A DNA stretch of 64,000 nt from Bdellovibrionota bacterium (GTDB taxonomy: Bacteria > Bdellovibrionota_C > UBA2361 > CALJRW01): contig JBGSMD010000046.1 of the NCBI GenBank assembly GCA_041740355.1, positions 64,001-128,000 of the forward strand, given 5' to 3'. Position 1 is the first letter of the stretch, and each line of letters opens with the position of its first letter. The notes beneath the pieces were generated by a model. That model saw only the letters and a program-made list of their open reading frames with translations. It was not told the DNA's origin and did no database searches. The position numbers and the translations under genes were made by a program. Of this stretch, positions 2,386 through 57,426 are shown one piece after another.

Positions 2386-3459
2386 ATGTTATCTCCAATC
2401 GTGTCTGAGCAAAATAGTGTCTTAGGTTGTCAACTATCTCCTAGTTCCGTGTCATTTGTAATAGAAGGGCAGCAGTTTCAATTTTGTTCTGTGGAATCAG
2501 ACCTTATTATCAAGGCACGTTCGATCATCAATAAACCAAATACTCTAGAGGTTGATTCCTATTTTCATTCACTACTAAAATTTGAACGATTAATTGATCT
2601 TGTAGCTTCTAAGCAAACTCTTACTAAAGGGCAATTATATGTGAATGGGCTCCAATTAAATCATGAAAACGCTGAGTATTTTGATCATGTTATTTGTCAG
2701 GTGACTGATTCCTTAGTTCCAAAAATTCTTCCTAGTAGTTATGAAAAGATTTTTACATTTAAAGAAGATCTACAGGGAGTTTTTAAAGTTACGATAGCAT
2801 CTGAGTTGTTGCTGAGTTATGTTTTTTTAAGATTTCAGGAACACTATGAGTCACCTGAATTTAAAAATCAGGTTTTTAGTAGGAAGGAATTTGTAGATTG
2901 GTATACGGCGGATCAAGGTGCCGGGCTTAGTTTTACCTACTATCGTGATTGGGCTGGTTTTAATTTGCCATCAGAATCGCTGCGATCATTTTTAAATTGT
3001 AACTTTAACGATATTTTGCCGGGAGAAGAATTTTTGATTAAGGGTTTCGAAAGTGTCTTTGCTGAGCAGCGCGATCGATTTTACGTAATTGGCTTGGCGG
3101 AAACAAGTTTAGACTGGACGTATGAGCATGAACAAGCACATGCTTTGTATTCCCTAAATGCTAATTACCGAACAGAGGTAAATATAATTTTAGATTCGCT
3201 ACCTGAGAATTTAAAAGAAATCTATCAAACTCGATTATTAGAGATTGGTTATGATGATGCTGTGATTAAAGATGAAAGCCAAGCTTACTTAATCCATCTC
3301 AATCAAAACCACTATGTGTTTAATTTGCAAAAAGACTCCACTGAGTATCAATTACTTACTCCATTTCACAAAGCCTTAGCTGGGGTTTTTACTAAATACA
3401 AACAACAACTTAGTACTAGTATGGAATTAAACTCGGCCGATCTTCCTGCATTAAATTAG
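2386..3459 (+). CDS. Hypothetical protein with HExxH motif (possible zincin-like metalloprotein)
   Basis: 357 aa ORF; YEHEQAHALY plus downstream DESQAY. Confidence 0.45.
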   Translation: MLSPIVSEQNSVLGCQLSPSSVSFVIEGQQFQFCSVESDLIIKARSIINKPNTLEVDSYFHSLLKFERLIDLVASKQTLTKGQLYVNGLQLNHENAEYFDHVICQVTDSLVPKILPSSYEKIFTFKEDLQGVFKVTIASELLLSYVFLRFQEHYESPEFKNQVFSRKEFVDWYTADQGAGLSFTYYRDWAGFNLPSESLRSFLNCNFNDILPGEEFLIKGFESVFAEQRDRFYVIGLAETSLDWTYEHEQAHALYSLNANYRTEVNIILDSLPENLKEIYQTRLLEIGYDDAVIKDESQAYLIHLNQNHYVFNLQKDSTEYQLLTPFHKALAGVFTKYKQQLSTSMELNSADLPALN

Positions 3460-45312: not shown

Positions 45313-46893
45313 ATGAAAATAAGTGAACAAATTGCCCGGCGCAGAACCTTTGCGATTATTTCGCACCCTGATGCTGGTAAGACAACACTAACAGAAAAAT
45401 TTCTACTATATGGCGGAGCCGTGCAGCTTGCTGGATCCGTTTCAGCAAAAAAGAATCAACGAGCTACAGCTTCTGACTGGATGGAGTTAGAAAAGAAACG
45501 TGGTATTTCGATTAGCTCTACGGTCTTGCAATTTGAGTATCGTGGATATGCCGTAAATTTATTAGATACTCCGGGACACAAAGATTTCTCTGAAGATACT
45601 TATCGCGTGCTAACAGCAGTGGATGCTGTAATCATGGTGATTGATGCCGGTAAGGGGATTGAAAATCAAACTCGTAAATTATTTGAAATATGTCGTCGGC
45701 GACAAATTCCGATTTTCACTTTTATGAATAAGTTAGATCGTCCCGCTAAAGATCCATTGGAATTGATGGATGAGTTAGAAAGCGTTTTAGGTATTAGTGC
45801 CTACGCTGTTAATTGGCCATTAGGAACAGGGAATGATTTTCGCGGAGTTTATGATCGGATGCGCGGGCAATTTCATTTATTTGAAAGAGTTGCAGGTGGG
45901 TCATACCGAGCACCAGAAGCAGTCGCGGATATTAGCGATCCGATAGTTCGCAAGCATTTAGCTCCAGATGTTTACGAAAGAGTAGTAGAAGAGTTAGAAG
46001 TGTTAGAAGGTGCTGGAGCCAGCTTTGATCATCAAGAAGTCTTAACAGGAAAACTTACTCCAGTATTTTTTGGAAGTGCCATTAATAATTTTGGGATTCA
46101 GTTTTTATTAGATCAGTTTCTTGATTATGCTGCCGAACCAAGAGCGAGAGAAGGTATTAATGGATTAGTACCAACAGATCATTCAAGTTTTTCAGGATTT
46201 GTTTTTAAAATTCAGGCAAACATGGATCCAAAGCATCGCGACCGAATTGCATTTATACGTGTTTGTTCAGGTGAGTTTTCTAGAGATATGAGTGTAACTC
46301 ATACCAGAACTGGTAAAAGTTTAAGGCTTTCCAGTTCTCATAAACTCTTTGGTCAAGACCGAGAAACTGTAGAAGAAGCTTTTGCCGGAGATATCATTGG
46401 TGTAATTGGCCATTCTGACTTAAGAATTGGAGATACTGTTACACAAGATCCGACAATTTCCTATCAGGAAATTCCTAGATTTGCCCCTGAGTATTTTGCC
46501 TATCTGCATAATAACCAAACTGCTCAGTTTAAAAGATTTCATTTAGGCTTTGAACAATTACTACAGGAGGGTGTAGTGCAAGCACTCTATCTTCATGGTG
46601 GACAGCGGGAACCGATCCTTGCGGCGGTAGGACCACTGCAGTTTGAAGTTGTGCAGTATCGTTTGGAAAGTGAGTATGGCGCCGTCACTAGAATTGAAAT
46701 GACTAACTGGAATAGTATTCGTTGGTTACCGAAAGAGTATGCTGATAAAATTAGTACTTTGAAAATTCCAATGGAAAGTGTTTTAGCAAAAGATGTTGAC
46801 GGAAATAATGTAATTCTTTTTCCAGGCGATTGGGCGGAGAGATTATTTACATCGCAAAATGTTGATGTCGTTTTATCTAAAGATCCACTCTAA
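45313..46893 (+). CDS. prfC: Peptide chain release factor 3
   Basis: RRRTFAIISHPDAGKTT, SDWM..EK.RGIS, DTPGH, NKLD, FKIQANMDPKHRDR. Confidence 0.97.
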   Translation: MKISEQIARRRTFAIISHPDAGKTTLTEKFLLYGGAVQLAGSVSAKKNQRATASDWMELEKKRGISISSTVLQFEYRGYAVNLLDTPGHKDFSEDTYRVLTAVDAVIMVIDAGKGIENQTRKLFEICRRRQIPIFTFMNKLDRPAKDPLELMDELESVLGISAYAVNWPLGTGNDFRGVYDRMRGQFHLFERVAGGSYRAPEAVADISDPIVRKHLAPDVYERVVEELEVLEGAGASFDHQEVLTGKLTPVFFGSAINNFGIQFLLDQFLDYAAEPRAREGINGLVPTDHSSFSGFVFKIQANMDPKHRDRIAFIRVCSGEFSRDMSVTHTRTGKSLRLSSSHKLFGQDRETVEEAFAGDIIGVIGHSDLRIGDTVTQDPTISYQEIPRFAPEYFAYLHNNQTAQFKRFHLGFEQLLQEGVVQALYLHGGQREPILAAVGPLQFEVVQYRLESEYGAVTRIEMTNWNSIRWLPKEYADKISTLKIPMESVLAKDVDGNNVILFPGDWAERLFTSQNVDVVLSKDPL

Positions 46894-47500: not shown

Positions 47501-49498
47501 GTGTCGTTCTCATTAACAGAAAACCTTCCAGTTCTTACCAATGCTCTTCAGTATAAAGACGCCTTGCCCGCAGCACTACAGCGAGATTTAAATCTCGCCT
47601 GTTTTGCAATCGTCTCAATTTTATTTGATGTAGATTTAAAAGCTAATCCAGATGAAGCTATTCGTGTTGTTAAGCAGCTAGATTTTAGTAAAGCAAAATT
47701 ACCAACAATCACCGATCATACATCTCTCGAAATCGTACTTAGTTCCCTAACAAAGCTTCGCGTAAATCAAGGAACATTTTTGCCCGCTAGTGAAATCATT
47801 GCAGAGTTAGTTAATTGTTCTATAGTTCAACGCAAGTTAGATAAGATCGAAATACTAGGCGAAAGTTATGGGGTTCTTGAATATTATGGCAGTCAGTTTC
47901 CGCTGTTAAATAGAAGTCTGATCATTGATACTCCACTTGGTCGAATTAAAAATGTGCTGGAGATTAATTCTAGGTTTAATAAGGCGATTGTAGAAATTAT
48001 TGAGAGTAGTCCAAATATTAAAGGAAAAGATCGCTTGTGTGTTATTGTTGGAGGTCGACCTGTATTATCTGTTGGGACAGTGATTCCTAATGAATTTAAA
48101 TATATCACCTTTAACTCAGCAGGAATTACAGAAGGGATCTATCAATTGGGAGGAGAGGCTTATCTTTTTCAATCAAATAAAACATTAGATCTAGATTTAG
48201 AAGGTGATTTTGTTAAAGCTGAGTTTGTAAAAAACACCAGTAGACCAACCGGAATTATTGCCACCTCAAAATTTATCTATTTAGTGAATCACGGAGAGTT
48301 GCATGACAAAATCTCCATTCAGCATTACTCTGATTTTCAACTTAATGTCGCTTTAGTGGAAAGTGAAAAATCACGGCAGGTTGTATTTTGGGGCGTCGTA
48401 AAAGCAAAAGAATGGGAGATTCCTTTTTTGAATTACGATCTTAGTCGTCCTAATTTGAAAGATTTACCACGGGAACCATTAGAAGAAGGTATTCCCAAGG
48501 AAGAGAGCGTAGTAATGACGCTGAGTTCAGAACCTGTTTTCTATCGAGGACAACTATATTTTCAGGCTGAGATAGCAGATAGAGGTACTGCTTTCTGTAT
48601 TGTCTCACTGGATTCAAATGGAACACCTAGTGTTAATTCAATCTTTTCTGTAAACAGTTGTGCCGTCGAATCATTTGAGCCGATGGATGATTTTAGTAGA
48701 TTAGGAAATGCATTGGTTCGAGCTGCAGGAGAAACTTTTTGTTTGCTCAATGGTAATTTTTACCATCAGTCAAAAGATCTACAGTTTTTAAATGACTTAC
48801 CTTGTCAGGTGTTGGGCGACTCAAAAGAAGTATTTTCCAAACTATTGTTTACCGAGACTGGTTGGAAAATTATTATTGATTCTGAAAATTCCTTTAATCT
48901 AAATTCAGTTATTTTTCCTTCAGCTACTGAATCCCCGATTGGCATCCATGTTAACTCTAATAATGAGTTGACCTGCTTGACGCAGCCTACTTTGGGAGAC
49001 GCACTAGTATTATATTGTTCTAATCATCCAATCGGTTTGCTGGAAGTTGATGATTTTCAAAGCCTGCTTGGTGTTCATTATTATGATAACAAGCACATTT
49101 GCTGTTTGTTTAAAGCTAAAGATGCTTATGTCAGTCTGACCTTTGAGGAGATTGGAGATGATTTATTTCCAAGGAGTTCATTAACCTTAACGGATGCGCA
49201 GATAACACCAATGGGATTGATAGGTAACTTGGAATCGAAGGACCCAATAATGATTATTAATGATCAGACCCTTTCTGGATATCAGTATCAAAGTTACAAT
49301 ACGGTAAGACTGATATCCGGTGGTCGGTTGCACTGTATTCAAACAGATCGAGGAGTTGTTATCATGACCGATGATCAGCAAGAGAATGAGATTTATCATG
49401 ATTATCAAATTACTAGGGACCTACAAGCCAATTTAATAATTGCAAAAAGTGATCCAACCGTTCAAATTAGTTTTCGATTTAATCAGATTCAAAATTAA
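47501..49498 (+). CDS. Large hypothetical protein (beta-rich)
   Basis: 665 aa open frame in AT-rich DNA; no motif recognised. Confidence 0.65.
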   Translation: MSFSLTENLPVLTNALQYKDALPAALQRDLNLACFAIVSILFDVDLKANPDEAIRVVKQLDFSKAKLPTITDHTSLEIVLSSLTKLRVNQGTFLPASEIIAELVNCSIVQRKLDKIEILGESYGVLEYYGSQFPLLNRSLIIDTPLGRIKNVLEINSRFNKAIVEIIESSPNIKGKDRLCVIVGGRPVLSVGTVIPNEFKYITFNSAGITEGIYQLGGEAYLFQSNKTLDLDLEGDFVKAEFVKNTSRPTGIIATSKFIYLVNHGELHDKISIQHYSDFQLNVALVESEKSRQVVFWGVVKAKEWEIPFLNYDLSRPNLKDLPREPLEEGIPKEESVVMTLSSEPVFYRGQLYFQAEIADRGTAFCIVSLDSNGTPSVNSIFSVNSCAVESFEPMDDFSRLGNALVRAAGETFCLLNGNFYHQSKDLQFLNDLPCQVLGDSKEVFSKLLFTETGWKIIIDSENSFNLNSVIFPSATESPIGIHVNSNNELTCLTQPTLGDALVLYCSNHPIGLLEVDDFQSLLGVHYYDNKHICCLFKAKDAYVSLTFEEIGDDLFPRSSLTLTDAQITPMGLIGNLESKDPIMIINDQTLSGYQYQSYNTVRLISGGRLHCIQTDRGVVIMTDDQQENEIYHDYQITRDLQANLIIAKSDPTVQISFRFNQIQN

Positions 49499-49727
49499 AA
49501 AAATTCTCAATATTGTTTTATAATTTACCTCATTAGCAAAAATTTTATTTTTAGCAGGCAAAAAACTGAGTAACTTAGTTTTTTTATAGTTATATCTATA
49601 GTTTAGGTGTTTTATGAAAGTTTAATTGTTGTAATTAATTATAAAATTCTTTCTAATCCATTGTGTAAGAAATTTACCTCCTCTATAAGGTAGCATTCAA
49701 AAGGCTGAGAGTTTTTAACTTAGTCTT

Positions 49728-49779
49728 AAAGATAAACTCAGATCTACTCTTTTCAGAAGTTAGATCTTGAGCTTACTAT
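49728..49779. mobile_element. Degenerate MITE-like palindrome
   Basis: AGATAAACTCAGATCTA...TAGATCTTGAGCTTACTAT; ends resemble 8589-8637. Confidence 0.4.
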
Positions 49780-49828
49780 AGTTCTTATCATAAGCCTTTG
49801 CTTGTTAATAAAACTCAGTTTGCATTTA

Positions 49829-50155
49829 ATGCCTTCTATGTGTGGTTTGTTTCTACGGAAACTTTTTCTGGTACTTCTAGTCTTCTCTGGCTTTGTTCAG
49901 GTAGTCAGCGATATTCACAATTCATGTGATAGCTCAATCAATAAAACTTTAGAAATTAAAAAGTTAGAATCAAGAGACGATCTTGATGGTTTTCAATCAT
50001 TGGACTTGCTGAAGTATCTAGCACGTGGCTCCAATTTTGAATTTGAAATTCAGCAAGTTTTAATTACTACTCTTACAGAACAGCAATATCATCCAATCTT
50101 TTCTCAAGAAATAAAGTTTACTTACTCTGGTCGAGCCCCTCCGGTAGTTGCTTAA
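49829..50155 (+). CDS. Putative leader/arrest peptide: export signal and C-terminal RAPP motif
   Basis: LRKLFLVLLVFSGFVQVVS signal-like segment; ends YSGRAPPVVA* (RAPP codons 50132-50143); start uncertain (49802, 49829 or 49838). Confidence 0.7.
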   Translation: MPSMCGLFLRKLFLVLLVFSGFVQVVSDIHNSCDSSINKTLEIKKLESRDDLDGFQSLDLLKYLARGSNFEFEIQQVLITTLTEQQYHPIFSQEIKFTYSGRAPPVVA

Positions 50156-50165
50156 TCTCTCATCG

Positions 50166-50200
50166 AAAAGACTACTTACTTACAAACGGCAGTAGTTTTT
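50166..50200 (+). terminator. Hairpin/attenuator candidate between leader ORF and sulP
   Basis: AAAAGACTACT...AGTAGTTTTT stem ending in a T-run. Confidence 0.45.
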
Positions 50201-50251
50201 AGTTTGACCCAATCGTTCCACAATAAGCAACTTTAACAAACATTCTGCTAT

Positions 50252-51787
50252 ATGCATTTCCCAAATTTGACCAAGTGTTGCTCACGCGACATGGTGAAAG
50301 ATCTGAATTCAGGTTTTCTTGTATTTTTAATAACTCTACCATTATGTATGGCCATTGCTGTGGCTAGTGGTTGCCCACCAATCTCTGGGATTATCACTTC
50401 GATTCTTGGAGGCTTGCTTACAGGCTTAATTGGCGGAGCAAAGTTATCCATCAAAGGTGCTCCCGCTGGTTTAATTGTAATTGTTTTAGCAGCCGTTACT
50501 GAGCTAGGTGTTAATGGAGATCCACTATCTGGATATCGAGCGGCATTAGCAGTGGGTGTAATTGCTGGATTCTTCCAGATTTTACTAGGATACTTTAAGC
50601 TTGGAAAGTTTATTGATTATATTCCAGCTGCAGTTGTCCATGGAATGATTTCTGCTATTGGACTGATAGTGATGGCCAAACAGATTTATTTCTTGTTGGG
50701 GATGAAGGCTGTTGGTAAGTCACCAGTAGAGCTACTCAGTCATCTTTTTCAAAGTTTACATTTAGCAAATCCCTTGATTGCCATGATTGGACTCGTTAGT
50801 TTGGTAATCATGGTTTGTTCCCTACATCCAAAACTTAAAAGATATTTCAAATTGCCTGGGGCATTAGTTGTCCTGTTATTTGCAATCGGAGTAAGTTTTG
50901 TTTTTCAACTCGGAACTAGTACCTCCTACCAATTCATGGGTACTAATTACAAACTAGATGATTCATTTTTAATCCATCTTCCAAATTCACTAATTCAAGG
51001 ATTAGTTATTCCTGATTGGAGCACTTTAGGAACTTTAACAGCTTGGAAGTTTATTTTTCTATTTGCTGTCATTGGTTGTATCGAGTCTTTGCTAACAGTT
51101 AAAGCTATTAATCAGACTCAAGGTCCAGACGAGCAAGCTAACTTAAATAAAGATTTGATCTCGATTGGAGTGGTAAATAGTCTCGCTGGAATGATTGGGG
51201 GAATTCCGATGATCTCGGAGATCGGTCGTAGTAAAGCAAATATTGATTTTGGTGCCACTAGTGCACGGAGTAACCTAATACACGGAGCATTGTTAGTTGT
51301 AGCAGTTGTATTTTTTGCAAGCCTTTTAAATCATGTTCCGATCGCGGCACTAGCAGCAATTTTAATCTTTATTGGATACCGACTTTTCTCGATTACGGAA
51401 TGGAAGCATTCTTGGCAACAAGGTAAGGCGATATTCGCGGTGTTCTTTGTAACATTTGCCGTGACAGTTGCTGTTGATTTATTGGCCGGTGTGCTTATAG
51501 GTTTTATACTTTATTTAATTTGTGAAAGTTTTAAATGTCATTCTTTAAAAAGAGTTTTTTCTCCCAAATTTATAATTGAAGTTGAATCTGAGCAGGCAAG
51601 GATATCATTTACAGAGGGTTTGATTTTCACCAACTTTCCAAAGGTAAAAAAAGTAACGGAAAATGCTCTTACTCTTCATCAAACAGTATTAATTGACTGC
51701 CAGCAATGTTCGTTTATTGACGACGAATTTATGCAGGAACTTAATAATTATGTTGCCGCCACTACTAGAGTGCAAAAATTAAGTTAA
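50252..51787 (+). CDS. SulP/SLC26 anion (probably bicarbonate) transporter with short STAS-like tail
   Basis: FLITLPLCMAIAVASG, IKGAPAG, ESLL, GGIPMISEIGRS..N. Confidence 0.9.
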   Translation: MHFPNLTKCCSRDMVKDLNSGFLVFLITLPLCMAIAVASGCPPISGIITSILGGLLTGLIGGAKLSIKGAPAGLIVIVLAAVTELGVNGDPLSGYRAALAVGVIAGFFQILLGYFKLGKFIDYIPAAVVHGMISAIGLIVMAKQIYFLLGMKAVGKSPVELLSHLFQSLHLANPLIAMIGLVSLVIMVCSLHPKLKRYFKLPGALVVLLFAIGVSFVFQLGTSTSYQFMGTNYKLDDSFLIHLPNSLIQGLVIPDWSTLGTLTAWKFIFLFAVIGCIESLLTVKAINQTQGPDEQANLNKDLISIGVVNSLAGMIGGIPMISEIGRSKANIDFGATSARSNLIHGALLVVAVVFFASLLNHVPIAALAAILIFIGYRLFSITEWKHSWQQGKAIFAVFFVTFAVTVAVDLLAGVLIGFILYLICESFKCHSLKRVFSPKFIIEVESEQARISFTEGLIFTNFPKVKKVTENALTLHQTVLIDCQQCSFIDDEFMQELNNYVAATTRVQKLS

Positions 51788-51869: not shown

Positions 51870-54800
51870 ATGTTAATGCCAATTAACGACGAAATAAAAG
51901 TTATTGATTCTGATTCAATTCACTTGATTTTGGAAGAGTTAGCGGAATTACTTCCGAGTCAAGGACCGATTGATGTCTTTATTCATCATAATACTTTACA
52001 TGGCCTAGAACATTTAAGTTTTTTTGAAGCAATAGAAACTGGCGCAAAGATTTTTGATGCTAGGTCGTATCTTGAGGAGAATCAATATCTCGAATTTTAT
52101 CATGAAAATCGAATTCAATCAGTAGATTTAGATTACATTTTAGAGAAATTAGAGATTGACTCAAAAAAATTTCCAATCATAAAACGAATCTTACTTAATG
52201 TTCCTTTTGCTAAAACCTTTCAGCAAATTAAATGGTTATTAAGGGAAAGTTTTTTAGAATTACCAGAGGATTCAGAAACATTAGCGGCGGCAGTCAGCTG
52301 GATTCAATCTAGCAAGTTGCAGGAGGAAATAAAATTCTTAGAAAAGATTAATCGTCAATCTGCAACAGGTTTAAGGTCCTTGTTACAGGCTACGATTAGT
52401 GAAGGCCAGCGACATGAAATCATTAAAGAAGCGCTTTGGTCTCGATGTTTACTTGCCGTTGTAGCTGAGAATATTCTTCCTGACCAAAATGTGGTTGAAA
52501 AAAATTCATTAATTATTGAAAAGGTTAATCCCTTTCTAATTAGATTTTGTGAGGAGTACTTAGATCTGGGACAAGCAACAGTTGCTATGCCGAATAGAGC
52601 CACCGGACTGCTAAACTCTTTTTACAACTTAGTTAAGAGCTCTGAGATTTATTTACCTGATTGGCTTAGTAGCGTCAGCTGCAGTATTGAGAAATACCAA
52701 TCACAAAAGCCTGAGGATATTTTATTAGAGATTATCACAAAAAAAGGTTTAAATTCAGTTGAAGCTAAAGAATTAATTTTCAGTGAAGTCTTAGCACTAA
52801 AAGGATGGGCTGGTTTTATTAGTTCAGCGGAACAGAATCCACATTACTTGCACCACCTAGCAGGTGAAATAAAACCTAGCTTGATGGAGTTTGTTACACT
52901 AAGAATAATATTAGCAGATCTAGCGGAAGTGTTCTGTAGAAAAGAGTTATCCTTACAGCGCGAAATAGTGGATCGATCAACATTAAATAAATTCGATCAC
53001 CTTTATCAGCTAGCATATCATTTATATTTAGTAGTGGTTGATGCCAGAGAAGTTAAAAAATCATTAACAGATTCTTTATATTTAGATCAGATTCTCGCCC
53101 AGCTTAATCTAGTTCCCCAATTAAAAAGGCAGAAAATTTGGCATTTGGCATACGAAGAAAATATTTACCGACGTGCTTTACAAGCGATTCAGTCTTGTGA
53201 GCCAGGTGATTCTTCTTCGCCTGAAATTATTGCTCAAATGGTTTTTTGTTTAGATGATCGGGAAGAGTCAATTAGAAGACATATTGAGAAGCAAAGCTCT
53301 AGTATTCAGACATTTGGAACGGCGGGTTTTTTTGGGGTTGATGCAATTTATCAGTCAATTAGTGGTGAGCAAGCGCCTTTTTGTCCGATTGTTATTAAGC
53401 CAACTCACATAATTCGTCAGAAACCAAAAGAGAGCTCTAATCAGCGACTGGTTAATCTGCAAAAAAGACAACAAGTAAATCTCCATTTTAATAATTACTT
53501 AAGTCGTTTTTCGGGATCTATTTTTCATGGTTGGTTAATGACAATCATTGGAATTTTCTCACTTTTCCCAATGCTCTTTAGTATTCTTTTTCCAAGACTG
53601 CGTAAGCCTTTTAGTAAGTTCTTTGATTTAGATGGAATGCTAACTACTGAATTATCAGATTTGGAAATGGTAATTCCTGTTACTTCCGAGGATCCTTCCG
53701 AAATTGCAGGGTATACTGAATTAGAGATGGCTGATCGAGTAGCTAATCTTTTGCAAACAATTGGCTTAACAAAAGAGTTTGGTAAATTAATCATTTTTTA
53801 TGGACATGGTTCTTCTAGTCGTAATAATCCACTTAAGTCGGCATATGACTGTGGAGCATGCGGCGGCCGGCCAGGGCGAATGAATGCACGGGCGATTGCC
53901 ATGATGGTTAATCGGGTTGGCGTGCGAGAACTTTTAAAAAATTATCATTCGATCGTGTTGCCGGAAGATACCTTTTGTATTGGTGCTTATCATAATACGT
54001 GTAACGATCAGGTACAGTATTACGATCTAGATTTATTGCCTGAGTCACACATAGTTTTTTTCGCTGGAATAAAAGAGTTAATGAATAAGGCCTGTAAAAG
54101 TAATTCTTTGGAGCGATGCCGTCGTTTTGGTCAAGTATCGGTGCAAACTCCGCTGGCAGCATATCGTGAAGTAAACTCAAGATCACAAACCTTAGCAGAA
54201 CCTAGACCAGAATACGGGCATGCCGGGAATGCTCTATGTTTTGTTGGAAAAAGATCGGAGACTAAAAATCTATTTTTTGATCGACGAGCTTTTTTAGTTT
54301 CTTATGATTTTCAGGAAGATCCCAAGGCTCAGATATTAACAAACATTTTAAAAGCGATTGTTCCTGTTTGTGGAGGAATAAATTTAGAATATTTTTTCTC
54401 AGCGCTAGATAATGAAGTTTATGGGGCAGGCTCTAAACTCCCTCATAATATTGTTTCTATGTTGGGACTAATGAATGGAACTTGTAGTGATTTAAGAACT
54501 GGATTGCCACAGCAAATGATTGAAATCCACGAGCCAGTAAGATTATTAATGGTTGTAAGTTGCGAACTTTCACAATTACAGGAGGCAATCCTACAAGATC
54601 CTACTGTTACTAGGATGATACATGGGCAATGGATAAGATTAATTTGCTGGGATCAATCACAGAAACTATTTTTTGATTATGATAGCGACGGGCTTTTTAA
54701 AGTAAAATCAGTCGAGCAGATAGCTCTGCCAGTAACAGAGAACTATTTAACTAAGATTATTAAGCGCTCTGATAATTTAGACTTTCTTCGAATTAGATAA
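51870..54800 (+). CDS. dabA: DabA/MpsB (DUF2309) beta-carbonic-anhydrase-like subunit of inorganic carbon transporter
   Basis: LPSQGPIDVFIHHNTL, Zn-ligand motifs FCLDDREES, GHGS, YDCGACGG; RPEYG, INLEYFFS, GSKLPHN, HEPVRL. Confidence 0.92.
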   Translation: MLMPINDEIKVIDSDSIHLILEELAELLPSQGPIDVFIHHNTLHGLEHLSFFEAIETGAKIFDARSYLEENQYLEFYHENRIQSVDLDYILEKLEIDSKKFPIIKRILLNVPFAKTFQQIKWLLRESFLELPEDSETLAAAVSWIQSSKLQEEIKFLEKINRQSATGLRSLLQATISEGQRHEIIKEALWSRCLLAVVAENILPDQNVVEKNSLIIEKVNPFLIRFCEEYLDLGQATVAMPNRATGLLNSFYNLVKSSEIYLPDWLSSVSCSIEKYQSQKPEDILLEIITKKGLNSVEAKELIFSEVLALKGWAGFISSAEQNPHYLHHLAGEIKPSLMEFVTLRIILADLAEVFCRKELSLQREIVDRSTLNKFDHLYQLAYHLYLVVVDAREVKKSLTDSLYLDQILAQLNLVPQLKRQKIWHLAYEENIYRRALQAIQSCEPGDSSSPEIIAQMVFCLDDREESIRRHIEKQSSSIQTFGTAGFFGVDAIYQSISGEQAPFCPIVIKPTHIIRQKPKESSNQRLVNLQKRQQVNLHFNNYLSRFSGSIFHGWLMTIIGIFSLFPMLFSILFPRLRKPFSKFFDLDGMLTTELSDLEMVIPVTSEDPSEIAGYTELEMADRVANLLQTIGLTKEFGKLIIFYGHGSSSRNNPLKSAYDCGACGGRPGRMNARAIAMMVNRVGVRELLKNYHSIVLPEDTFCIGAYHNTCNDQVQYYDLDLLPESHIVFFAGIKELMNKACKSNSLERCRRFGQVSVQTPLAAYREVNSRSQTLAEPRPEYGHAGNALCFVGKRSETKNLFFDRRAFLVSYDFQEDPKAQILTNILKAIVPVCGGINLEYFFSALDNEVYGAGSKLPHNIVSMLGLMNGTCSDLRTGLPQQMIEIHEPVRLLMVVSCELSQLQEAILQDPTVTRMIHGQWIRLICWDQSQKLFFDYDSDGLFKVKSVEQIALPVTENYLTKIIKRSDNLDFLRIR

Positions 54801-54806
54801 TAACAA

Positions 54807-56132
54807 ATGATTAAGTTACTCTCCCAACTAGCAGCTCAAATAATTTTCATTCTACCTGTAATATCTTTAATAATAATTATTGTAGATCGCCTAGTTCGGC
54901 GCAAGGTAAATGAAAAACTAGTCGTTAGCACAATTCTTTACTCACAGGCAATGTCTTTTATTGCCTTAAGCTTTATTTGGTTTTATTTTTTAATTGATGG
55001 AAGCTCTCCAATAAATTTTTTCAAAGTTGAATTATTAAACTTTGGAGAGCAATCAATTACTATTAGGTTTTTAATTGATCACTTGTCGTTGCCATTCATC
55101 AGCATCAATGTTCTTTTGGGTGCGATTGTTGGAATTTTTGCCTCACGATATTTGCATCGAGACTCTGGTTATTTTCGCTTCTTTGTTTTGTATCATTTCT
55201 TTCTATTTGGAATGAACTTAATTGTATTGGCAGGAAATTTAACGGGGGTTTTTATCGGTTGGGAAATTGTAGGATTAACTTCAGCCTTGCTAATTGCCTT
55301 CTTTGCCTTTCGTAAACAAACGGTAACAAATTCTCTGCGAGCATTCTGGGCTTATCGCGTAACTGATACTGGACTGCTGTTAGCTTCCTTAATTGTTTTG
55401 AACCTTGGGGCATTAAGTTTTTCTGAACTAAAACTTATTCAACAGCCAATGATGATTAATTTAATTTTAATCCTTTGTTTGGTTTCAGCGATGGGTAAAT
55501 CCGCGCAATTCCCTTTTGGTCATTGGTTACCTAAGGCGATGGAAGGACCTACACCTTCAAGTGCAATTTTCTATGGTGGGTTATCAGTTCATGCTGGAGT
55601 TTATTTAATTTTAAGAATTACAGATAGCATTGGACAGCCATTATGGTTCTCTGTTTTGTTAGTTTTAGTGGGATTAACCACGGTTCTCTATGGTTCGATT
55701 TTAGCGAAAATTCAGAGTGATGCCAAAAGCTCGCTGGCTTTTTCAGCTATGACTCAAGTCGGGATTATCTTTATTGAGCTTGGATTCGGTTGGACGATGA
55801 TTGTCATTGTCCACTTTGTTGGGCACGCACTTCTGCGAACGTATCAATTGTTAAATGCCGCATCGTTACTCCACGATCATCAAGCATTTCAACATTCGAT
55901 TGGTCAATATCAGCCAAAGAAAAACTCTCCTGGAAATACTATTTGGACAAAGATCTATCCTTATGTTTTCTGGGAAAATTACTCTAGCTTCTCTGACAAA
56001 TGGAGTGTCTTGAATTTATTAGAAAAGGCTTCTAGTGCACTCAGATTTTTTGATTACAAGTGTCACGATATATTGTTTCAATTGTTTGAGAAGACTTATC
56101 ACTATTTTCTAAGATTTAAAATTAACCGCTAG
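54807..56132 (+). CDS. dabB: DabB/MpsA NuoL-like proton-conducting membrane subunit
   Basis: GWEIVG, KSAQFPF..WLPKAMEGPTPSSA, HAG, HFVGHA; follows dabA. Confidence 0.88.
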   Translation: MIKLLSQLAAQIIFILPVISLIIIIVDRLVRRKVNEKLVVSTILYSQAMSFIALSFIWFYFLIDGSSPINFFKVELLNFGEQSITIRFLIDHLSLPFISINVLLGAIVGIFASRYLHRDSGYFRFFVLYHFFLFGMNLIVLAGNLTGVFIGWEIVGLTSALLIAFFAFRKQTVTNSLRAFWAYRVTDTGLLLASLIVLNLGALSFSELKLIQQPMMINLILILCLVSAMGKSAQFPFGHWLPKAMEGPTPSSAIFYGGLSVHAGVYLILRITDSIGQPLWFSVLLVLVGLTTVLYGSILAKIQSDAKSSLAFSAMTQVGIIFIELGFGWTMIVIVHFVGHALLRTYQLLNAASLLHDHQAFQHSIGQYQPKKNSPGNTIWTKIYPYVFWENYSSFSDKWSVLNLLEKASSALRFFDYKCHDILFQLFEKTYHYFLRFKINR

Positions 56133-56133
56133 C

Positions 56134-57426
56134 ATGAAAACCAAGAATTTATATTTTATAGCAAGTGTTCTCTTCTTAGGGTTATTTCTTTTACTAATTA
56201 CCGGATCCAGTACTCGACTTGCTAGCTATCTAGATTCTTCCGTTTTGCAAGTTTCGACATTGTTCTGTGGGGTGATCTTTAATTTAATGATGACACTTGT
56301 TTATTCTGCTTTCGGCCGACGGGTCTTTAAATTTTCATTTTCTGCTCTTTGGTTTTATTTACAAGTTATAATTAATTTTAGCTTACTAACTAATAGTATG
56401 CCGATATTTTTTATTTTAATTGCCTTAGCTTTGGTCGTCCATATTCGTGTTAGTAAACTTGACGTATTTCAAACAATAAAACATAGCCATCACTTTTTAG
56501 TATTTAGTGGTTTCTCTACAATTGCCCTAGTCTTGCTAGCAATCTTTGCCGGTAATGTCTTTTTTCTTAATGGCATTTATACAATTAGTCAGCTACAGGC
56601 CCAAACAGCCGAACTTAATCAATTCACTGTTTTATTAGGTGTTATTATTCTAGCATTAATGGTGGGAATCTTTCCTTTCCACTTTTGGGTTAAGCCGATT
56701 TTTTTAGCACCGACACGATATGGATTAGCAGCAATCATTCGTTTAAATATAGGTTTTGTTTTTTGGTGTAAGTTTGGATTCCTAATGAATGCTGCTTTCC
56801 AACAATATCCCAAACTTATCTTGCTGATGCTAACTTCAAACTTAGTATACTCTGCTCTAATACTATTTGGAGAAAGAAAGCTGAGCGGAATTGCGGCCTC
56901 ACTCTATCAATGGCATGTGCCATTGTTTATTTTAAATGGTGTACTGGTACAACATGGGGCTGCTATTCATTCGGTGATGGATTTTTTTAATACGTCCATT
57001 TGTATCTCAAGCTTAGTGATAATAATTGCCATGCTCCGCGATCGAATTGGTCCCGAAAACTTAGATTCAGCTACAGGCCTAGCTATTTCCTTTCCGATAT
57101 TTGGGCTTTCCTTCTTGTTTTGTGTCTTATCTTTGATCGGCTTCCCCGGAACTTTAGGGTTTATGAGTATCGAAATTTTATTACACAATCTAAGTCAAGA
57201 TTATTGGCCAGTTGCTGGTTGCTTTGTACTGGCCTTAGCTTTAAATGGTTATTCGTGTTTTAGAATATTTGGAGACTCCTTTTATGGGAATCCGCTACAA
57301 ATTTATAATAAAATTTTTCAACCAAAACCAAGAGAAAAAATTGCCTTACTGATCTTGATATTAATTGTATTGGTTAATGGACTTGGACCAGACTTACTGG
57401 TTAGAATCTATAATTATGTTATTTAA
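56134..57426 (+). CDS. Second antiporter-like (NuoM-like) membrane subunit
   Basis: GIFPFHFW, LSLIGFPGTLGF..E, RE.........G..P C-terminal helix; 1 nt after dabB. Confidence 0.75.
   Translation: MKTKNLYFIASVLFLGLFLLLITGSSTRLASYLDSSVLQVSTLFCGVIFNLMMTLVYSAFGRRVFKFSFSALWFYLQVIINFSLLTNSMPIFFILIALALVVHIRVSKLDVFQTIKHSHHFLVFSGFSTIALVLLAIFAGNVFFLNGIYTISQLQAQTAELNQFTVLLGVIILALMVGIFPFHFWVKPIFLAPTRYGLAAIIRLNIGFVFWCKFGFLMNAAFQQYPKLILLMLTSNLVYSALILFGERKLSGIAASLYQWHVPLFILNGVLVQHGAAIHSVMDFFNTSICISSLVIIIAMLRDRIGPENLDSATGLAISFPIFGLSFLFCVLSLIGFPGTLGFMSIEILLHNLSQDYWPVAGCFVLALALNGYSCFRIFGDSFYGNPLQIYNKIFQPKPREKIALLILILIVLVNGLGPDLLVRIYNYVI

Follow-up and report, generated by a model that had tools for sequence, protein, structure and literature searches.

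Nascent peptides that end in or near RAPP or RGPP form a class of ribosome-arresting sequences that includes the ApdA/ApdP-type peptides (Fujiwara et al., EMBO J 2025, PMC12992588). According to the sections of that study on which we draw, RAPP and RGPP are the two most robustly arresting variants, they arrest in varied N-terminal contexts and in the face of EF-P, and they are strongly selected against in ordinary proteins, while they are enriched towards the C-terminal end of small proteins, secretory or membrane-bound, whose genes lie upstream of co-oriented genes of diverse function. All seven such Streptomyces lividans proteins that were tested showed Arg-dependent arrest. With E. coli ribosomes, arrest was poor for most of the RAPP/RGPP peptides of S. 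lividans (PMC12992588), so that arrest depends on the ribosome, a point that bears on the ribosome of the lineage studied here as well. The downstream genes named in the same sections are sec genes and genes for TonB receptors, YcnI, PCuAC, PepSY, DsbA/thioredoxin and ECF sigma factors; the named targets thereby cover secretion, metal homeostasis, redox folding and sigma factors, and recent work proposes that leaders of this class control many processes besides protein secretion (PMC12992588). The main text of the study mentions no SulP, DabA, bicarbonate or carbon; its source-data gene lists (Fig. 4) may include SulP or DabA.

Further points of reference are provided by CruR (Bp2923) of Bordetella pertussis (Roy et al., mBio 2022, PMC9426467), whose family carries a CXXC motif and a conserved distance of 45 residues from Cys to the Arg of RAPP, by CutF of Rhodobacter capsulatus (Ozturk et al., mBio 2023, PMC9973294), and by SecM and other substrates that monitor the Sec/YidC pathways (PMC7897499, PMC10987492, PMC10951299). 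CutF combines a cleavable Sec signal with a CxxxC motif and copper, affects the gene that follows it, and only in cis, and has CutF-like relatives in a DUF2946-like group (PMC9973294). An earlier note on the DNA analysed here, made from its letters, knew of no described arrest-peptide control of DAB operons, and our literature search likewise found no paper that links an arrest peptide to DAB, SulP or bicarbonate genes.

The window, by which we mean the whole 64,000-nucleotide stretch of DNA analysed, belongs to genome G000, and a homologous locus is present in a second genome of the same genus, G001. In the window a leader ORF on the + strand can be opened at 49802 (TTG) or 49829 (ATG) in the ORF listing and runs up to 50155. 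Neither of these upstream starts is conserved between G000 and the homologues; protein-database gene calls (P0001) also begin the leader at the ATG at 49838, which we use throughout. Its parts are as follows.

49838..50155, + strand: leader ORF, 105 codons plus stop, beginning at the ATG common to the homologues.
49838..49909, + strand: predicted export signal, codons 1-24, with R7 and K8, a 15-residue hydrophobic core and small residues at -3/-1.
49910..50014, + strand: conserved exported segment, codons 25-59 (DIHNSCDSS...DLLK), a candidate sensor or pulling-force segment.
50015..50128, + strand: variable linker, codons 60-97, which would fill the exit tunnel and the translocon gap at arrest.
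50129..50143, + strand: G-R-A-P-P, the predicted arrest point, at which the P site would hold P101 (50138-50140) and the A site P102 (50141-50143).
50144..50155, + strand: tail V-V-A and stop codon, of which 50146-50154 is predicted to form the upstream strand of a 9-bp stem.

Everything that the earlier note had picked out in this small ORF is present, namely an export-like N-terminus, the sequence IHNSCD (residues 26-31, just past the hydrophobic stretch) and GRAPP three codons ahead of the stop; the protein ends in YSGRAPPVVA, with the RAPP codons at 50132-50143 and the stop codon at 50153-50155. Kyte-Doolittle means over 11 residues lie between 2.2 and 2.8 across residues 5-23, and AF2 predicts a helix over residues 1-20 (pLDDT 73-77). 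The -3/-1 region reads VVS in G000 and AVA in G001, and by the -3/-1 rule the signal would be cleaved after residue 24. The region is conserved in the three-way alignment. As a cleaved signal or an anchor alike, this predicted N-terminus is the signal sequence or transmembrane segment that characterises the RAPP/RGPP class, and the leader also has the motif (RAPP/RGPP) near the C-terminus and the size of a small protein (<300 aa). The AF2 model as a whole is poor (mean pLDDT 52.4, pTM 0.21), with pLDDT < 50 for codons 60-97.

No Pfam or NCBIfam family covers the leader, a Pfam search at E up to 0.1 having returned only DUF1846 (E 0.097, under the cut-off), and neither a profile scan nor the alignment revealed a ligand-binding motif of known type. 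Pfam, protein word and HMM searches found no sequence homology to any described RAPP/RGPP member. Among named language-model clusters the nearest to the leader are SecM_small (0.93), a DUF2946-named cluster (0.92) and CzcI (0.92), similarities that serve as a lead only.

The leader family comprises three proteins, those of G000 (105 aa) and G001 (105 aa) and a third homologue, P0003 (104 aa), which carry RAPP, RAPP and RGPP at 3, 3 and 2 residues ahead of the stop, respectively. At 61% protein identity the G000 and G001 leaders are equal in length, with the frame intact and no indel, and P0003 (68% identity) keeps the frame as well; genomic context is covered for G000 and G001, and P0003 is known as a protein alone. 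Across 41 related genomes the only credible matches were those in G000 and G001, the rest having E values of 0.03 or worse. A word search of 5.8 billion proteins returned the three family members and no more, and an HMM search of 1.84 billion representatives returned only the family's own cluster plus P0005, a 1194-aa repeat protein matched over 31 residues, which we regard as spurious. None of 150 pattern matches in JGI metagenome contigs was confirmed, and GTDB genome contigs yielded the G001 record only. All of the family belongs to a single uncultured genus found in hot-spring metagenomes, and with three members in one genus its conservation is shallow. The sequencing runs listed with the locus are three DNA runs from one study, labelled hot springs metagenome, and no RNA run; all three match the stretch without difference, so that no third allele was seen.

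Pfam confirmed the earlier note's assignment of sulP, dabA, dabB and a nuoM-like gene, in this order and on the same strand, after the leader.

50252..51787, + strand: sulP, SulP-family anion transporter (PF00916, E 6.7e-57).
51870..54800, + strand: dabA, beta-carbonic-anhydrase-like DAB subunit (PF10070, E 4.4e-200, model positions 2-747 of 747).
54807..56132, + strand: dabB, NuoL-like proton-translocating subunit (PF00361 plus PF00662; the best NCBIfam matches are NuoL models, below their cut-offs).
56134..57426, + strand: second, diverged NuoM-like membrane gene (PF00361, E 5e-07; NDH_I_M, E 1.2e-13, below cut-off), which closes the same-strand run.

A PF10070 DabA followed 6 nt on by a protein with both PF00361 and PF00662 has the make-up of a DAB pump, for which Ci uptake is a prediction only. 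The SulP protein scores under the NCBIfam cut-offs for DauA, sulP and BicA, and its linkage to dabA suggests that its substrate would be bicarbonate. From the leader stop to the sulP start there are 96 nt in G000 and 54 nt in G001, always on one strand, so that both loci show the co-oriented downstream gene typical of the RAPP/RGPP class. A sigma-70 scan found no promoter-like site between the leader stop and sulP, and none of the 17 neighbouring proteins scanned is encoded by a regulator or metal gene.

We then compared the upstream regions of 28 other dabA loci, in 18 of which sulP lies directly ahead of dabA. The earlier note had made conservation of RAPP upstream of homologous operons a test of its proposal; such conservation holds within the genus (two loci, plus the P0003 protein) and fails at the 18 other sulP-dabA loci of the phylum, where no canonical R[AG]PP leader adjoins sulP. 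Two of the 18 have an ORF that ends in RSPP (L047) or LSPP (L073) plus 3-4 residues. Neither ORF has a homologue in the related genomes compared (29 for the RSPP ORF, 30 for the LSPP ORF), nor does the RSPP ORF have one in the protein database, and as singletons they cannot be validated as genes; these unrelated ORFs of other lineages hint that proline-stall leaders perhaps arose more than once on this type of operon. Three other ORFs hit by the pattern scan were discarded as unlike leaders: a 44-aa ORF that overlaps the sulP 3' end in a fetched stretch of 60% G+C (L057), a 92-aa ORF whose end lies 2 kb upstream of sulP (L060), and a motif internal to a 240-aa porin-like ORF (L066). Nor is the operon of G086 closely related to this one, its DabA and SulP being 33% and 41% identical.

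Three noncoding elements surround the leader.

49657..49689, + strand: conserved upstream box, made up of 16 nt (49657-49672) and 14 nt (49676-49689) identical between G000 and G001.
50222..50240, + strand: A-rich box of 19 nt, 12-30 nt ahead of the sulP ATG, with 18 of 19 nt the same in G000 and G001.
50167..50200, + strand: hairpin, -9.3 kcal/mol, z -2.16 (6 of 200 shuffles as good), 11 nt past the leader stop.

Both boxes are unique in the genome and stand out from diverged surroundings, the upstream box from flanking intergenic DNA and the A-rich box from the spacer. The upstream box is a candidate promoter or operator of a leader-sulP-dab transcript; the sigma-70 scan did not call it, its sole same-strand call being at 49495-49524. 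The A-rich box is a candidate site for ribosome loading or for regulation. No Shine-Dalgarno sequence lies ahead of sulP, and SD-like 4-mers precede only 361 of the 2283 long ORFs in the genome.

As for the hairpin with a T-run that the earlier note had placed after the leader, the structure is real though weak, and it is neither conserved nor terminator-like. Its stem has 2 G-C pairs, the U-run forms part of the 3' arm, a terminator scan of 49400-50400 gave no site, and the hairpin sits in an insertion found only in G000, missing at the G001 locus, which is not a repeated element. An intrinsic-terminator attenuator was rejected on these counts (no terminator site, 2 G-C pairs, the U-run inside the stem, no hairpin in G001). 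Folding of G000 also predicted a 9-bp stem between 50146-50154 and 50224-50232 (101-nt fold, -18.7 kcal/mol, z -2.57, 4 of 200 shuffles as good), which would join the footprint of a stalled ribosome to the conserved box ahead of sulP; this stem has no counterpart at the homologous G001 positions, where the fold gave z -0.19. In constrained folds a stalled ribosome did not open the sulP start, the mean unpaired probability from -20 to +12 going from 0.79 to 0.66 in G000 and staying at 0.66 in G001. A fold of the whole region was no better than shuffles (z -0.51), and the only Rfam match was to a snoRNA (E 0.045, under the gathering score). A run with C in excess of G extends across 50000-50310 and the equivalent stretch of G001; it ranks in the top 8.7% of genome windows only and is unremarkable. 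The genome does contain rho.

Between G000 and G001 the five GRAPP codons comprise 1 identical, 4 synonymous and 0 nonsynonymous, whereas codons 60-97, immediately ahead of them, comprise 5 identical, 2 synonymous and 31 nonsynonymous (38 codons). That GRAPP differs only synonymously while 31 of the preceding 38 codons change residue shows selection on the peptide, and the sole substitution seen within the motif, A to G, gives the other strong arrest variant. The leader is the only G000 ORF of at least 40 aa with such a motif within its last 12 residues. Composition predicts about 1.4 C-terminal R[AG]PP/RAGP motifs by chance among 10,826 ORFs of at least 40 aa, against 1 observed, the leader, and a single C-terminal motif per genome is therefore not improbable by itself; what exceeds chance is its conservation in three of three homologues, by way of synonymous codon changes and within a C-terminal half that has otherwise diverged. 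In G000 ORFs of at least 150 aa, RAPP was observed 0 times with 3.9 expected, which leaves the RAPP of the leader as the only one in these ORFs and the leader together, and RGPP once with 3.3 expected, in a proteome too small to show RAPP-specific avoidance, as AAPP (4 vs 7.0 expected) and AGPP (1 vs 6.0) also fall under expectation in the same ORFs. The gene is real, GRAPP is under selection at the level of the peptide, the N-terminus is of export type, and the ORF lies near the operon in the same orientation. We infer that translation would arrest at GRAPP, that pulling would release it, and that the leader would act in cis on sulP in response to a sensed signal, for which the earlier note had proposed secretion or proton-motive force, Zn or carbon status. 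Overall, we consider it rather probable that the ORF is a real arrest-type leader, a nascent-chain regulator of the RAPP/RGPP class, small and exported by Sec, at the head of the sulP-dabA-dabB operon.

The best-conserved part of the protein is, however, the exported segment, codons 25-59, which holds most of the invariant columns of the three-way alignment and comprises 23 identical, 9 synonymous and 3 nonsynonymous codons between G000 and G001. Proteins that have their own function typically show such a pattern, and it would suit an ordinary small secreted or membrane-anchored accessory or periplasmic factor of SulP/DAB, in which RAPP is structural or a harmless pause and has no role in cis. 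DAB1 systems do have a small essential third subunit, DabC, in the account given by PMC13684180; moreover, RNA folding yielded no clear coupling device, and other sulP-dabA operons function without such a leader. We nevertheless regard this explanation as unlikely. GRAPP excepted, the C-terminal half shows little conservation and is predicted as disordered, the cited sections of PMC12992588 report strong selection against RAPP/RGPP in ordinary proteins and arrest in many different contexts, and the motif's one substitution leads to another strong arrest sequence. The leader also has one hydrophobic segment and precedes sulP instead of lying beside dabAB, and both features set it apart from DabC as described in PMC13684180, so that it was rejected as a DabC.

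A further explanation accepts the arrest and gives it another purpose, in that signal and stall would together hold the polycistronic mRNA at the membrane for co-translational insertion of SulP, DabB and the NuoM-like protein. Large polytopic membrane proteins are the products of three of the four downstream genes, the leader joins an export signal to a late arrest point, and it carries no ligand-binding motif of known type, all of which would fit. No direct result favours it, however, simple tethering would not need the conserved segment 25-59, and the portions of the RAPP, CruR and CutF literature used here offered no bacterial precedent; we consider it decidedly improbable. The view that the ORF arose by chance in a long 5' leader, its RAPP being an accident and any conserved signal residing in the DNA or RNA, would accord with the roughly one C-terminal motif per genome expected from composition and with the want of a family annotation, but is scarcely credible given a frame kept without indel or change of length between G000 and G001 at their level of divergence and kept again in the third homologue, synonymous changes that outnumber nonsynonymous ones both in codons 25-59 (9 vs 3) and in GRAPP (4 vs 0), and no Rfam match of note.

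If the ORF is an arrest-type leader, its working can be proposed as follows. As the ribosome translates the leader, residues 1-24 would engage the translocon and the conserved segment 25-59 would emerge next. With R99-A100-P101 in the P site and the Pro102 codon in the A site, a placement predicted by analogy with the CruR toeprint presented in PMC12992588, peptide-bond formation would be blocked, as described for RAPP peptides. The variable linker 60-97 would span the exit tunnel at arrest and, by filling it, would place segment 25-59 where export, folding or ligand binding could pull and so release the arrest. The dwell time of the ribosome on 50138-50143 would then set the level of sulP-dabAB expression, and might do so by either of two routes: a stalled ribosome could shield the G-poor end of the leader and the spacer from Rho, in the manner of CruR, or could melt pairing between the end of the ORF and the conserved box ahead of sulP, as in SecM or CutF. 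Against the arrest model we count the shallow conservation of a family of three, a number of C-terminal motifs that composition would predict, a proteome too small to show RAPP-specific avoidance, the want of a canonical leader at the 18 other sulP-dabA loci, the dependence of arrest on the ribosome, the ordinary character of the C>G run, the lack of a G001 counterpart to the G000 stem, the failure of the folds to release the sulP start, and targets that are neither secretion nor metal genes.

A more specific proposal is that the leader serves as a periplasm-facing nascent-chain sensor tying the expression of CO2/bicarbonate uptake to extracytoplasmic conditions, which we put forward tentatively, as possible but on the doubtful side. 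In one form, the speed at which residues 25-59 are exported would report membrane energisation or external pH through the duration of arrest, and the operon would rise as proton-motive force or CO2 availability falls, for example at alkaline pH. In a second form, cleavage after residue 24 would leave His at mature position 3, followed by Cys-Asp. Such a mature N-terminus would resemble an amino-terminal Cu/Ni-binding arrangement, so that a metal could be the ligand, as for CutF and CruR.

Should the arrest-type reading prove true, the RAPP/RGPP class would, with a leader on a SulP/DAB operon, come to include the acquisition of inorganic carbon, and DAB systems would gain a candidate post-transcriptional control; the passages of DAB literature that we consulted were not found to address regulation. 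The sensor reading, if true, would make this the first carbon-concentrating or DIC-uptake operon under post-transcriptional control by a nascent peptide. In either event a short peptide with a separable signal, an exported segment, a tunnel spacer and GRAPP would offer a compact system in which to ask whether sensing outside the Sec/YidC pathways makes use of arrest that is released by force.

Set beside the described systems, the leader shares with SecM and the other Sec/YidC monitoring substrates, as portrayed in the cited parts of those papers, an export signal, a late R-A-x-P-type motif near the stop and an arrest presumed to be released by translocation force; in contrast to SecM, MifM, VemP and ApdA/ApdP, its downstream gene is sulP and not secA, secDF or yidC, and it has no SecM Pfam match. 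With CruR it has in common a predicted exported uORF product, a C-terminal RAPP at the head of an operon and a C>G-biased ORF end and spacer, and with rho present a stalled ribosome could likewise block Rho-dependent termination. It differs in having no DUF2946 match, a single Cys (C30, in H-x-x-C-D) and 68 residues from C30 to R99, in that its target is not a TonB-dependent, copper-related transporter, and in that the C>G bias is not unusual for this genome. The comparison with DUF2946 leaders of the CruR type drawn in the earlier note was accordingly dropped, since the DUF2946 match, the CXXC, the spacing and downstream metal genes are all wanting. Like CutF, the leader pairs a predicted Sec signal and a candidate exported sensor motif with a C-terminal, proline-rich, stalling-like motif, and the logic of CutF is that of the model proposed for segment 25-59; it differs from CutF in lacking CxxxC, and in a sulP that has no SD and whose start was not shown by folding to be sequestered. 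The closest likeness is to the RAPP/RGPP class at large, in a leader of 105 aa with an N-terminal localisation signal, a late RAPP/RGPP, a variable preceding sequence and a close, co-oriented gene. The difference lies downstream, in a SulP transporter and a DAB CO2-hydration pump, and the leader looks like a member of this known class whose SulP/DAB target is of a new kind.

The leader in the window is, in our best explanation, an arrest leader of the RAPP/RGPP class that controls sulP-dabAB in cis, a reading that we hold to be probable in its entirety. Within it, arrest by the leader is the likelier part, and regulation, should arrest occur, follows with slightly less assurance. The locus belongs to a 3.27-Mb draft genome (G000; 36.3% G+C), and the window DNA is present in three runs of a single study labelled hot springs metagenome. 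The features, all on the forward strand, are as follows.

45313-46893, +, prfC, peptide chain release factor 3 (GTP_EFTU plus RF3_C)
47501-49498, +, gene for a 665-aa protein without a Pfam or NCBIfam family, immediately before the leader region
49657-49689, +, two blocks of 16 and 14 nt, identical in G000 and the same-genus genome G001, and unique in the genome
49802-50155, +, leader ORF as listed, between the 665-aa gene and sulP
50167-50200, +, hairpin (-9.3 kcal/mol, z -2.16) with two G-C pairs and a U-run within the stem
50222-50240, +, 19-nt A-rich box whose G000 and G001 copies agree at 18 of 19 nt, 12-30 nt before the sulP ATG
50252-51787, +, sulP (PF00916, E 6.7e-57)
51870-54800, +, dabA (PF10070, E 4.4e-200)
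54807-56132, +, dabB, NuoL-like
56134-57426, +, second, strongly diverged, NuoM-like membrane gene, starting 1 nt after dabB

Comparison of homologues places their common start at the ATG at 49838, giving 105 codons, and the product ends in YSGRAPPVVA*, with the RAPP codons at 50132-50143. This confirms what the earlier note had observed, a RAPP-ending ORF before the sulP-dab genes, and the position that it had given for the motif. The sulP product does not reach the NCBIfam cut-offs of the DauA, sulP and BicA models, so its substrate is not assignable. Counting the NuoM-like gene, the DAB locus here has three genes, the third of which may parallel DabC, the third subunit that PMC13684180 describes for DAB1 systems. 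The gene that follows is on the opposite strand, and ten further neighbours scanned include no regulator or metal-related gene. On the other side of the leader, the 665-aa protein has a C-terminal part that G001 conserves in the matching position (L002 2652-3314, on the minus strand), while prfC lies 3 kb upstream, a closeness that is probably coincidental. The two short identical blocks precede the leader ATG by about 150 nt in G000 and about 70 nt in G001; the second holds an anti-Shine-Dalgarno-like CCUCC run, and the pair may serve as promoter, operator or 5'-UTR element.

Across all databases searched, the leader family has three members, from G000, from G001 (61% identity) and a third homologue, P0003 (68% identity). 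Their lengths are 104-105 aa, and they end in GRAPPVVA*, GRAPPATA* and ERGPPVA*, the sole change in the motif being A to G, which gives RGPP.

Codon differences between the G000 and G001 leaders (ungapped codon comparison)
Codons 1-24, signal: 15 identical, 4 synonymous, 5 nonsynonymous
Codons 25-59, conserved exported segment: 23 identical, 9 synonymous, 3 nonsynonymous
Codons 60-97, variable linker: 5 identical, 2 synonymous, 31 nonsynonymous
Codons 98-102, GRAPP: 1 identical, 4 synonymous, 0 nonsynonymous

This pattern shows that the frame is translated and that selection acts on two separate stretches of the peptide, its first 59 residues and GRAPP, with the linker between them nearly free to vary. 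The weight of the motif comes from this comparison across homologues and not from its occurrence in a single genome. Taken alone, it is not improbable in G000, where residue frequencies from 2283 long ORFs predict that about 1.4 of the 10,826 ORFs of at least 40 aa have R[AG]PP or RAGP within the final 12 residues, and one does, the leader. Nor can specific avoidance of the motifs be demonstrated: RAPP (0 observed against 3.9 expected) and RGPP (1 against 3.3) are scarce in the long ORFs, but AAPP (4 against 7.0) and AGPP (1 against 6.0) also fall below expectation, and the proteome is small.

Near the start of the leader, R7 and K8 lead into a hydrophobic core of 15 residues, and D25 is preceded by small residues at -3/-1 (VVS; AVA in G001); by the classical -3/-1 rule this N-terminus reads as a cleavable Sec signal. 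The main rival explanation, that the leader is an ordinary accessory exported protein, would draw on the conserved segment behind this signal; the poorly conserved C-terminal half, GRAPP excepted, speaks against it, and we consider it unlikely. An AF2 model is of low confidence (mean pLDDT 52.4); it places a helix over residues 2-48, and its pLDDT stays under 50 for residues 60-105. For an arrest leader, a ribosome at P101/P102 would already have made 101 residues; the 38-residue linker plus GRAPP would be roughly long enough to occupy the exit tunnel and bridge to the translocon, and segment 25-59 would be the portion just emerged. Its export, folding or ligand binding would then pull on the chain and release the arrest. 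We infer that this geometry is what release by pulling would predict, a mechanism published for SecM-type peptides (PMC12992588) and proposed for CutF (PMC9973294).

The weakest link of the arrest-leader reading is the coupling of the leader to sulP. The hairpin that the earlier note had seen exists, but it lies within an insertion absent from G001 (the spacer measures 96 nt in G000 versus 54 nt in G001) and is not part of a conserved device; as a terminator it fails, since the terminator scan found none and the U-run belongs to the stem. It was also considered as a repeat element and rejected, no repeats being found. What the spacer conserves is the A-rich box. In G000, positions 50146-50154, within the footprint of a ribosome if stalled on RAPP, pair with 50224-50232 of the box (101-nt fold, z -2.57, matched by 4 of 200 shuffles). 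G001 has a local fold between the F-G-R-A codons and spacer bases immediately 5' of the box, which does no better than shuffled sequence (z -0.19). Constrained folding did not make the sulP start more accessible in G000 (mean unpaired probability 0.79 to 0.66) or in G001 (0.66 to 0.66). Neither sulP nor the leader is preceded by a Shine-Dalgarno sequence, and SD-like 4-mers at -18 to -4 occur before just 361 of 2283 G000 ORFs of at least 150 aa (longest-start calls). Shine-Dalgarno pairing thus seems to be used sparingly in this lineage, and a classical stem shielding such a site is not expected. As an alternative to stem melting, a ribosome stalled on the leader could act as in CruR, where it shields an unstructured C>G stretch from Rho (PMC9426467). 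A rho gene is present in G000, and the stretch from about 50000 to 50310 is richer in C than in G, as is its G001 equivalent, a bias that 8.7% of windows across G000 match.

At E up to 1e-10, 36 of the order's 91 genomes have DabA, and at E up to 1e-50 so do 40 of the phylum's 124. Among 28 upstream regions of dabA fetched, all from genomes outside the genus, 18 have sulP directly before dabA, and none of these 18 has an R[AG]PP ORF abutting sulP, so that conservation of the motif before homologous operons, a check that the earlier note had proposed, is not borne out there. Two loci have small ORFs, unrelated to the leader, that end with RSPP or LSPP close to the stop:

L047 (G086:C73) 315-665, +, 117-aa ORF P0004, ending in HSGRSPPRISE*, 242 nt before sulP-dabA
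L073 (G100:C6) 2902-3294, +, 130-aa ORF P0006, ending in STDLSPPLRA*, 46 nt before sulP

Each has two hydrophobic segments, and P0004 is labelled 'hypothetical protein [Bdellovibrionales bacterium]' in the database. P0004 aligns with the leader over its last 17 residues only (E 0.002 pairwise); neither 29 related genomes nor the protein database contains a homologue, and its operon is not especially close to that of the window. P0006 has none in 30 related genomes; the sulP of its genome is the most similar to the window's outside the genus (45% identity). These unrelated singletons, putative genes, are suggestive of a recurrence of such leaders. Elsewhere in the order, a dabA match with one in-frame TAG (G004:C25:11289-14099; L020, L050) has no sulP-sized ORF in the 5 kb upstream, in contrast to most other loci. 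In genus g10 (L049, L053, L054, L059 and others), many genomes have 0.6-1.8 kb free of ORFs of at least 120 aa before sulP-dabA; close species share some of the short ORFs in these gaps (e.g. L049 2650-2868, L053 2767-2934), which may harbour another kind of leader or an RNA element.

Consistent with the earlier note, which knew of no arrest-peptide control of DAB operons, none is described among the literature matches listed for DabA/DabB, bicarbonate or SulP. SulP, DabA and bicarbonate are likewise absent from the main texts of PMC12992588 and PMC9973294, whose supplementary gene lists may hold such cases.

The comparison with DUF2946 leaders that the earlier note had drawn does not extend to membership, as the leader matches no Pfam or NCBIfam profile of the DUF2946/CruR/CutF group. 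CruR has CXXC and CutF CxxxC, whereas the leader has one Cys, in H-x-x-C-D, separated from the Arg by 68 residues as against a conserved 45 in CruR (PMC9426467); unlike in that group, no copper genes occur among the neighbours scanned. The nearest named language-model Atlas clusters are SecM_small (0.93), a DUF2946-named cluster (0.92) and CzcI (0.92), a lead only, because Atlas matches often arise by chance. Fujiwara et al. 2025 (PMC12992588) report that arrest is most robust with RAPP and RGPP, occurs there in varied N-terminal contexts and resists EF-P, that RSPP and RDPP are partly permissive, that CruR stalls with one Pro codon in the P site and the other in the A site, and that the seven S. 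lividans RAPP/RGPP proteins tested all arrested in an Arg-dependent manner, most of them giving predominantly full-length product on E. coli ribosomes. The leader fits this class at every sequence-level point: size, motif, motif position, N-terminal hydrophobic signal and co-oriented downstream gene. The interpretation of the earlier note is supported in part, in this class assignment and not in a DUF2946 membership or the hairpin; the element is of a kind already known, and the leader forms a new family whose class of target had not previously been named.
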